Shown piece after piece: positions 46,510 through 48,600 of a stretch of DNA of 64,000 nucleotides. The stretch lies in NCBI GenBank assembly GCA_002269645.1, contig NIVC01000652.1:1-64000 (forward strand), read 5' to 3'. The DNA is from Macrostomum lignano (lineage: Eukaryota). The translations under genes were made by a program, and so were the position numbers. The first letter of the stretch is position 1. Each line of letters starts with the position of its first letter. Below the pieces are notes generated by a model that saw only the letters and a program-made list of their open reading frames with translations, was not told the origin of the DNA and searched no databases.

Positions 46510-48600
46510 TGGCGATTCTGGATATTCTGGATCATCATAATACTACTGACGGCAGTAGTCACCAAAGCAACAGCAATGGAGAAACCAATGATATGTCCAA
46601 CGGATGCGCATATCCAACCGATGATCTACAAGATACCAACCGACATCAAATGCAGCTACTTCAAGACAAACCAGACGAAGCCAAAAAGATCACAATCGAT
46701 CTCTACAAAGCCAACATCAAGAAGCATCGACAACTTGGAATCGTGTGCTTCAGAGACAAGCACCTAGTCGAAAAAATATGGCGAGGACAATGGAACAGAA
46801 TCCGATTCCGACAGCATGAGCTACATGTGTCGCACGCTGACTGCCTACGATGGAACCAGACATTGTTCTCCAAAGATGGTGTACTAGAACCTGATGAAAA
46901 GGTCGGCAACGCACAACTCTTCCGAACAAAGAATGTGGCAAACGGTCGATATGTCCACTATAATGAAAGATGGCCTGACTACACGGCACGCAACAGCTAC
47001 CTAATCAGGAATGTTCCGTTCTACTACAATCCGTACGAGAAAATGGAATCACTGCAACTGCAACTAAGTGAATGCCGATACAGCGAAGGATGGTGCCCAA
47101 CGCCGATATTGCGAAATGCAGAACTCTACAGCCTACCGCTGAGTCCAACGTATCATCCAGACTATCGATGGCAGATAGTGCACAGAGCCGATCCACACTA
47201 CGAAGAGCCATCAAAGTCACGACAATATTTCTTCGCTTGGAAGGTTGAGACGGAAATCGACTGTCAACTACAAAAGTACCACACAGTGGAAGGAGGCCTA
47301 CTGTCAAACACGTTTTTGGCAAAGTCAGGAGACTTGGCACTGACGTTTCAAAAGAAACCAGTCGAGCAAAAACTGAAATGCAAGATACAGACAAGACACT
47401 ATTCATCTCGGAACAAGAGATACCAGTCTACGTAAAAGAAGACGACAAACAAACCTTTCTGGCGATCATCAACGGAACGTATCAACAGCAGGAACAACAG
47501 AACAGACGACGACGAGACATCGAACGTCCCAAACTGGTGTCAAACCGACTACTGTCAGCAAAGATAACGGCTTTGGATCATAATCTACACAACCAGTTAA
47601 ACCACTTGCATCGAACACTGGTCCAGCTAACTTGCAAAATGCACGCAATCAACTTAAATTATGCCAGACAAAACTACTATGTCAACCCTACGATGACTTT
47701 TCGTAAAATCACCGGAATGACGAACGTTTTGGCAGTTCCAATATACGAGCATCTGTTGATATACAAGTGCACGCCGATACAGCACTTTAACATCTTGCCG
47801 TCGAACACGTCAACAACCTGCTATGACAAGCCAAGGATTGAAGCGTTCTACGAAGGAAAACGAATTCAAGGATTCTTGGACACGGTACACAACATCATCG
47901 TTGGCACCGCAATACCGAGACCTTGCACCACGGCAGCAAACTATTATCAACTGGACAATGCACTACACGTCATCAAAACAACTGGAACGACAGCAAACAT
48001 CACAGAACCGGAAGTAATCGTCGACGAAAACTACGACATGGAGGATTTGAAAATCCGATTCAACAGAACGAAGTATACGCCATTCGCCGATATCCAACTT
48101 GACGAGATAACACCAGGATGGACGATCAACGACTTCTTGCAAGCGTTCATCACCCAACGCAAGATGATTCACCAGCTGTTCACAAGAAAGGACAAAGGAA
48201 CCGGGACAGGAAGATTTCCCGTCCTTGTTTCAATGGACAGCGCCATCAAATCATTTTGGACAAACAGCTTCTGGGAGCTGCTCAATGGAAGAGGCAGTCT
48301 CTATCAAGGATTCATCTTCTACGGTGCTTGCATTGTGTGGATTGTCACGGCAATCTTCATCATTTCGTCGATCGTACGGTGCTTCAGTCAAACTTGTCCA
48401 AGAGCTAAGAAGACAGTGAATGCCATAATGCAAAGAACGACAACGGAAGGCGACAACAGTTTAGAACTAACAGAAACTGCACATCGTGAGGTTCAAGGGC
48501 AACCGACACTAGCAACGCGGCTATATCCATCGATTCCGACAACACCAACGGCACCAAGAATACAACCACCCAACTATCAAGCAGAACAGCAAGACCCAAA
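46510..48600 (+). CDS. env: Envelope glycoprotein of element 2, herpesvirus gB-like class III fusion protein, with cytoplasmic tail; 1-nt shifts at about 46685 and 47380
   Basis: Signal/TM WRFWIFWIIIILLTAVVTKATA; ITIDLYKANI; DCQLQKY; furin site RRRR|DI (47504-47515); central helix ending LTC...VNP...G...A...IYKC.P; TCYDKP...GFLD...PC...YYQ (compare HSV gB NP...ARMLGDVMAVSTC.P, CYSRP, GQLG, EPC...RYF); NxT/S sequons; TM at about 48308-48376. Confidence 0.85.

Follow-up and report, generated by a model that had tools for sequence, protein, structure and literature searches.

What might three motifs of the kinds known as viral late domains be doing in the tail of a retrotransposon envelope protein? 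The question is raised by a locus of the flatworm Macrostomum lignano, lying within a 64-kb stretch of DNA (hereinafter the window). Here, 19 codons at 48521-48577 of the plus strand translate as LYPSIPTTPTAPRIQPPNY, inside an open frame running from 47249 to 50341, about 47 residues past a hydrophobic helix and 37 ahead of the protease motif at 48689. This translation and its coordinates bear out the original prediction, namely three late-domain motifs within 19 residues, between the transmembrane (TM) helix of Env and the protease. The PTAP and PPxY motifs fit their consensus exactly, whereas LYPSI is an isoleucine variant of the YPXnL consensus, its final residue being, as had been anticipated, a departure from LYPxL.

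The element, its Env and the motif cluster

The motifs belong to an element of the Ty3/gypsy type that spans 43073-53771 and has the layout gag-env-pol (Table 1). It combines the Pol order PR-RT-RH-IN with LTR ends of the form TG...CA, a target-site duplication and a primer-binding site, as in Ty3/gypsy LTR retrotransposons, and its named Pol matches are likewise gypsy-type. Since the two LTRs are 100% identical, the insertion is young. The window copy is split by frame changes into seven ORF pieces. The region from the tail to the protease has 93 matches in the same genome, which fall at identities of about 91-100%, 80% and 49%; uninterrupted natural reading frames, 2370-2538 codons long, contain 12 of the 93. 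The family therefore encodes one Gag-Env-Pol polyprotein. It shares 97-98% identity with a Macrostomum lignano polyprotein in UniRef, and identity among most of its copies exceeds 95%. In four public runs, three of them only guessed to be RNA, contigs cover 28-30 of the 30 element bins; no joints skipping env or the motif stretch were seen in these contigs, which says nothing on whether such joints are absent. We did not count P0002, a database gene model that lacks the motif stretch, as an isoform, the model being a chimeric prediction.

By sequence homology, the Env is class III-like, or gB-like. Its homologs match PF24664 and PF00606; the match of the window Env to PF24664 (E 5.6e-5, 21.7 bits) falls under the 27-bit cut-off, and sister families of the same genome score above it. 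Atlas features stand at 0.95 to PF24664 clusters, with a recognition of 1745 that is under the 2300 mark, and the Atlas neighbors among the matches listed are all class III, i.e., Monjiviricetes, rhabdovirus G or gB clusters, again with low recognition. The Env profile found no sequence match in the PDB, and an AlphaFold2 model of the ectodomain, computed on a 4-row alignment, had a pLDDT of 29.8. Two hydrophobic helices with basic flanks bracket the ectodomain, from which the tail beyond the second of them is predicted to be cytosolic. The Env cysteines, the furin-type site and the TM helix are all kept in the young multi-copy families.

Table 1. Features of the gag-env-pol element, in window coordinates
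Feature	Position	Strand	Remarks
5' LTR	43073-44147	+	1075 nt, TG...CA; 100% identical to 3' LTR over 1075 nt
3' LTR	52697-53771	+	Partner of 5' LTR
Target-site duplication TGCA, 4 nt	43069-43072	+	Partner at 53772-53775; flanks inspected
Primer-binding site TGGTGATCTCGC	44150-44161	+	Reverse complement equals the site given for Mlig_errantivirus_2 (PMC13524379 supplement)
Gag: capsid-like region and CCHC knuckle (45547-45588)	44843-45588	+	Pfam zf-CCHC E 0.001, weak gag matches; broken by a frame change in the window copy
Gag-Env linker, acidic, low-complexity, predicted cytoplasmic	45589-46503	+	Bears PPxY in families C/D
Basic residues, then internal signal/anchor helix	46504-46575	+	Hydropathy peak in 6/6 long copies examined; predicted topology
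Env ectodomain, class III (gB/Monjiviricetes-like), cysteine-rich	46576-48307	+	Broken by frame changes in the window copy
Furin-type site RRRR	47504-47515	+	Within Env ectodomain
Env transmembrane helix, then basic residues	48308-48379 (about)	+	Hydropathy
73-aa cytoplasmic tail (predicted) / Env-protease linker	48380-48598	+	Holds LYPSIPTTPTAPRIQPPNY
LYPSI	48521-48535	+	ALIX-type YPx[LI] variant; also matches the generic YxxPhi sorting pattern
PTAP	48545-48556	+	TSG101-type motif
PPNY	48566-48577	+	NEDD4/WW-type PPxY motif
Trp-Pro dipeptide	48602-48607	+	Candidate N-terminal protease processing site; just past the motifs
Aspartic protease	48656-48925	+	PF13650 E 1.1e-10, PF13975 E 3e-9
RT, RNase H, integrase	49622-52155	+	PF00078, PF17917, PF17921, PF00665; broken by frame changes in the window copy

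A six-frame scan of the window returned a single LYPx[LI] match, that in LYPSIPTTPTAPRIQPPNY, which also holds the only plus-strand P[TS]AP and PPxY of the whole element. Could such a cluster be a matter of chance, i.e., of fortuitous matches in a disordered linker rich in proline and threonine, conserved merely because the copies are young? The linker is indeed proline-rich (8 of 73 residues). When the 73-residue tail was shuffled, all three motif kinds appeared in 3 of 400,000 trials and fell within 19 residues in one of 400,000; the 19 residues shuffled on their own gave all three in 63 of 400,000; and shuffles of the entire polyprotein gave the three anywhere in 51 of 5,000 trials and clustered in 0 of 5,000. 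These tests are post hoc, with the motif having been chosen by eye, and the comparative tests presented below weigh more. Two other accounts of the stretch were rejected at the nucleotide level: there is no long overlapping frame at this position, and its predicted folding (MFE -15.6 kcal/mol against -19.7 +/- 3.6 kcal/mol for 200 mononucleotide shuffles) does not point to an RNA structure.

Conservation and turnover of the motifs within one genome

As a subset of the 93 matches, we examined 22 loci of families A and B (the 79-100% groups, with 20 distinct sequences) and six loci of families C and D (the 49% group). Across A/B, YPx[IL] and PPxY are present in 22/22 loci each and PTAP in 21/22; the x of PPxY may be N, T, I or G. 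Among the 20 distinct A/B sequences, one of the ten motif-defining positions is variable as against 33 of the other 63 tail positions, a difference (Fisher p 0.013) that is indicative only, for the copies are related; further, seven extra synonymous codons were counted at the ten defining positions. The original prediction would have been undermined by sibling elements that had lost the motifs and kept the flanking sequence; the opposite is seen, with the motifs held while the neighboring residues drift. Thus, at the level of sequence, the motifs look selected.

A family search of the same genome widened the comparison to nine gag-env-pol families that fall into four lineages, between which the ectodomains are 20-30% identical. 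A hydrophobic-YPx[IL] motif is found in the tails of eight of the nine families and P[ST]AP in those of seven, with family F showing PPAP in place of the latter in 5/5 loci and single copies showing PPAP or PNAP; PPxY occurs in the tails of two (A and B) and is absent from those of the other seven. The sole family without any motif is L037. Both core motifs, P[ST]AP and hydrophobic-YPx[IL], are present in three of the four deep Env lineages, and tail shuffles put the chance of having both at 0.0004-0.002 per tail in the motif-bearing families. In all eight of these, the proline at +1 and the hydrophobic residue at -1 of YPx[IL] are kept. A Trp-Pro dipeptide follows the motifs in each of the eight (A-H) and is missing in the motif-less family.

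The arrangement of the motifs varies. PTAP follows YPxI in A/B and precedes it in C, D, E, G and H. Thus, C/D tails have PTAP and then IYP[KR]I (YPxI in 6/6 loci, PTAP in 5/6) and no tail PPxY; in these families, the linker that joins Gag to Env has a PPPY or PPAY instead, before the signal helix (L011, L012, L029-L032); none was seen in the fragmentary locus L033. The original prediction had all three motif types adjacent to each other; this stands for the A/B pair and fails elsewhere, where the core consists of P[ST]AP and hydrophobic-YPx[IL], mostly in the opposite order. Hence, as far as these sequences go, only A/B have the triple cluster, and the core shared more widely is P[ST]AP plus YPx[IL]. 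The broader part of the prediction, that budding-type motifs reside on the Env tail, gains from the comparison, in that such motifs recur across deep lineages, where they lie on the side of a class III-like Env that is predicted to face the cytoplasm. Late-domain classes are known to combine and to be position-independent (PMC7995964); because position independence is such a known property, the turnover seen here, with its changed order and a PPxY that sits on the other linker in C/D, counts for a late-domain function.

Besides the lineage of the window family, the same genome holds at least three very divergent gag-env-pol lineages with a PF24664-type Env (L036-L046, P0005), whose ectodomains are 20-30% identical to that of the window family. 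In the supplement of PMC13524379, one element row was found for M. lignano among the matches listed.

Distant Env proteins and env-less relatives

A profile built from the ectodomain only found 82 proteins among 1.84 billion. Tails could be defined in 37 of these; of the 45 dropped, 21 end before the TM helix, 21 had no TM helix called and three had tails shorter than 40 aa. With the model from the window's own family (P0002) left out, 36 distant tails remained, of which 13 bear at least one of the motifs, as against 2.4 expected (p 0.001). The strongest contribution is that of P[TS]AP, in 7/36 tails with 0.37 expected; PPxY (3/36, 0.89 expected, p 0.06) and YPx[LI] (4/36, 1.24 expected, p 0.04) are each weak alone. 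Seven letter-permuted control motifs are not enriched in the same tails. In the ectodomains of the 36 relatives, any motif is found in 5, with 5.3 expected, and P[TS]AP in 2/36, with 0.37 expected (p 0.065). The carriers include records from Caenorhabditis angaria and Haemonchus contortus, and among the dropped rows, PSAP stands past the TM helix in P0005 and P0006, with PTAP and PPxY lying further downstream in P0078. Motifs are also found in 7 of the 18 tails that end without a fused protease. The other 23 of the 36 distant tails are without any motif; given these, together with one of the nine families of the M. lignano genome and one of three env-bearing elements found through Pol, the motifs are not required group-wide. 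Mapped on a quick 41-row tree, the PSAP label takes 7 changes, with a shuffled mean of 9.1 and 22 of 500 shuffles as low; in this sampling it is scattered over the tree with slight clustering. A search aimed at free-virus glycoproteins or elements with a 3' env returned three matches.

Taken against these comparisons, chance appears highly improbable as the source of the motifs and is already largely refuted. It can draw on the proline-rich linker, on the near-identity of most copies of the window family and on most of the distant tails being motif-less; nevertheless, the shuffle tests, the selective conservation of the defining residues, the recurrence in changed order between lineages that are only 20-30% identical, and the enrichment with clean permuted controls all speak against it.

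The distant tails also bear on whether the motifs might serve partners other than ESCRT: YPxI as a tyrosine sorting signal for AP-2/AP-1, the prolines as ligands of non-ESCRT SH3 or WW domains, or the whole stretch as the context of a protease cleavage. YPSI does fit YxxPhi, the tyrosine sorting pattern, and the motifs lie just ahead of a candidate cleavage site; moreover, tyrosine motifs steer the traffic of the Env proteins of MLV and MPMV (PMC1592117). However, generic YxxPhi is not enriched in the 36 tails (14, with 16.0 expected), yet the flanking proline and hydrophobic residue that distinguish YPx[IL] are kept in every motif-bearing family of M. lignano; P[TS]AP is enriched in its exact form and its permutations are not; and the presence of motifs in tails that have no fused protease is at odds with a mere cleavage context. 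We accordingly deem such partners improbable.

A separate group of matches lies elsewhere in Env: in the relatives P0050, P0053 and P0194, two of which are nematode-named records, the N-terminal part contains WPSAP or FPSAP with FGCC after it. This PSAP is probably luminal and structural, and cautions against calling every match a late domain. Further, the gag-env-pol polyproteins P0094 and P0095 have an extra hydrophobic helix and an Ig-like domain past the integrase.

The relatives without env address the provenance of the motifs. Among 93 proteins found through Pol, 25 gave usable env-less linkers ahead of the protease, 65 were dropped as the protease or the upstream sequence was not located, and three bear env. 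None of the three motifs occurs in the 25 env-less linkers (0/25, with 0.87 expected; Fisher p 0.00035 versus the distant tails), one of which is from a protein with a C-terminal TM segment that may carry a 3' env (P0101); in two of the three env-bearing proteins, motifs lie between the TM helix and the protease. Likewise, in a small control of 27 loci from three env-less families of the M. lignano genome, no P[TS]AP or PPxY is present in any frame over the 420 nt before the protease, where one YPx[LI] was found. Nor is either of these two motifs present in the 1.5 kb before the protease of an env-less element just upstream in the window (36465-40690). In the unbroken natural copies scanned, neither P[TS]AP nor PPxY occurs in the Gag of the family, which also lacks a position-2 glycine that could be myristoylated. 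A YPAL in Gag was considered as a late domain and rejected, being inside the capsid-like region and not kept in family C. Also disfavored is the idea that the motifs came with a captured p6-like Gag linker before the protease, as 0/25 env-less linkers and 7/18 protease-less tails carry them. Hence, the proposal that the budding function moved from Gag to the Env tail is unsupported: in the 25 env-less linkers there is no motif between Gag and protease, and in this family Gag, Env and Pol form one polyprotein. As the env-less linkers are without motifs and the motifs go with Env, no ancestral Gag-borne late domain is in sight.

A putative budding mechanism and its precedents

The host encodes candidate partners for the motifs. 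A TSG101 UEV domain is present (E 6.7e-39) and aligns to human TSG101 at E 4e-44, with one aromatic residue of its hairpin differing from the human protein; the genome also has exons for the ALIX V domain and many WW domains, among which NEDD4 itself was not identified. Together with the conservation described above, this makes it highly probable, as judged from sequence, that the tail motifs are docking sites for ESCRT. We lean, with more reserve, towards these putative sites recruiting ESCRT for the scission of an enveloped particle, and advance the following mechanism. The polyprotein would be threaded through the membrane such that Gag is cytosolic, the ectodomain luminal, and the tail and Pol again cytosolic. 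The internal signal helix would tie Gag to the membrane, and both motif-bearing linkers would lie in the cytosol adjoining it. Retroviral proteases prefer aromatic-Pro cleavage sites; here, the protease might free itself just past the motifs, perhaps at the Trp-Pro dipeptide, such that the motifs stay on Env. PTAP could then bind TSG101, YPxI ALIX and PPxY a NEDD4-family ligase, with ESCRT-III cutting the neck of a particle that would be pinched off at the plasma membrane or into multivesicular bodies. The membrane anchors would thereby stand in for a matrix domain, with the role of p6 at the end of HIV Gag falling to the Env tail.

ESCRT might instead be engaged for trafficking, with the Env or the tethered precursor being directed to endosomes, degradation or exosomes, or an intracellular step of retrotransposition being served, and nothing infectious being released. 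The same conservation data fit this account; E-cadherin enters vesicles by way of a P(S/T)AP in its tail (PMC9511404), and L1, which is non-enveloped, uses a late-domain motif in intracellular steps (PMC5478143). Because ESCRT motifs thus also serve vesicle sorting and intracellular retroelement steps, enveloped budding has to be kept as a conditional reading. Nevertheless, we hold a trafficking role without release to be less likely than budding, if a serious rival to it: the motifs track an Env whose cysteines, furin-type site and TM helix are maintained in young multi-copy families, they are missing from env-less relatives, and viral late domains typically combine motif types (PMC7995964). 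Were sorting the only function, the motifs would still be a new conserved host-interaction site, if of lesser interest.

The element itself is not new. Chary & Hayashi described GAG-ENV-POL Ty3/gypsy "errantiviruses" with an HSV/gB-type Env in Platyhelminthes, Nematoda and Bryozoa (PMC13524379), crediting the nematode gB-type cases to Sacco et al. 2022. The row Platyhelminthes_Rhabditophora_Mlig_errantivirus_2 of their supplement (16 copies, ENV_HSV) lists the primer-binding site of the window element, and the window family is very probably that already catalogued family. It shares with their errantiviruses an env between gag and pol, a class III-like Env between a signal helix and a TM helix, the LTRs and many young copies; what we add are the tail motifs and the one-frame topology. 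The main text of PMC13524379 does not mention late domain, ESCRT, PTAP, budding, cytoplasmic, polyprotein, single ORF or fused, and the transmission mechanism of env-bearing Ty3/gypsy elements outside Drosophila is called elusive. We found no account of late-domain motifs in Ty3/gypsy Env tails in a literature search that lay mostly outside subscription journals; Sacco et al. 2022 may mention them. Tail-borne motifs of the late-domain type thus appear to be undescribed for gB-type errantiviruses, and the sequence comparisons indicate that the feature is real, conserved and wider than one family. Such conserved ESCRT motifs offer a concrete candidate exit route for Env-bearing elements, in a laboratory flatworm whose genes can be knocked down.

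Among characterized late domains are PTAP and YPXnL in HIV-1 p6, PPxY in RSV and PTAPPEY in Ebola VP40 (PMC7995964), and also LYPSL in RSV (PMC8402826). The motifs of the flatworm element are of the same three classes as those of retroviral Gag and, like p6, stand just before the protease; in contrast to them, they are carried not by Gag or matrix but by the cytoplasmic tail (as predicted) of a fusion glycoprotein within a Gag-Env-Pol precursor, isoleucine closes the ALIX-type motif and the function is predicted. They suggest a retroelement architecture that may recruit the scission machinery through the envelope tail instead of Gag. Motifs on a membrane protein as opposed to a capsid or matrix have a parallel in bluetongue virus NS3 (PSAP and PPXY; PMC7995964), which however is non-structural, and in E-cadherin (PSAP), which is a host protein; neither of the two is the virion fusogen of a retroelement. 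LINE-1 is a further retrotransposon that engages ESCRT via a late-domain motif (PMC5478143), although it is non-LTR, has no envelope and does so in an intracellular role. More tentatively still, invertebrate gag-env-pol retrotransposons, those of flatworms and nematodes among them, might be matrix-less enveloped viruses with a flavivirus-style membrane polyprotein, budding through ESCRT via the fusogen tail; in the same tentative reading, late motifs would have been repeatedly gained, lost and reordered on either of the cytoplasmic linkers flanking Env. If true, reverse-transcribing viruses would have a mode of budding that has not been described for them.

Elsewhere in the window, the upstream env-less element mentioned above is a second gypsy element with the order PR-RT-RH-IN, and directly past its integrase lies an ORF with DnaJ and chromo domains (40775-41776) that is possibly an extra ORF of that element. 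The window further contains a 66-nt tandem array of about 44 copies from 4045 to about 7000, a cluster of 16-nt repeats in inverted arrangement at 54040-54420, and a C-rich tandem array at about 56000-57900.
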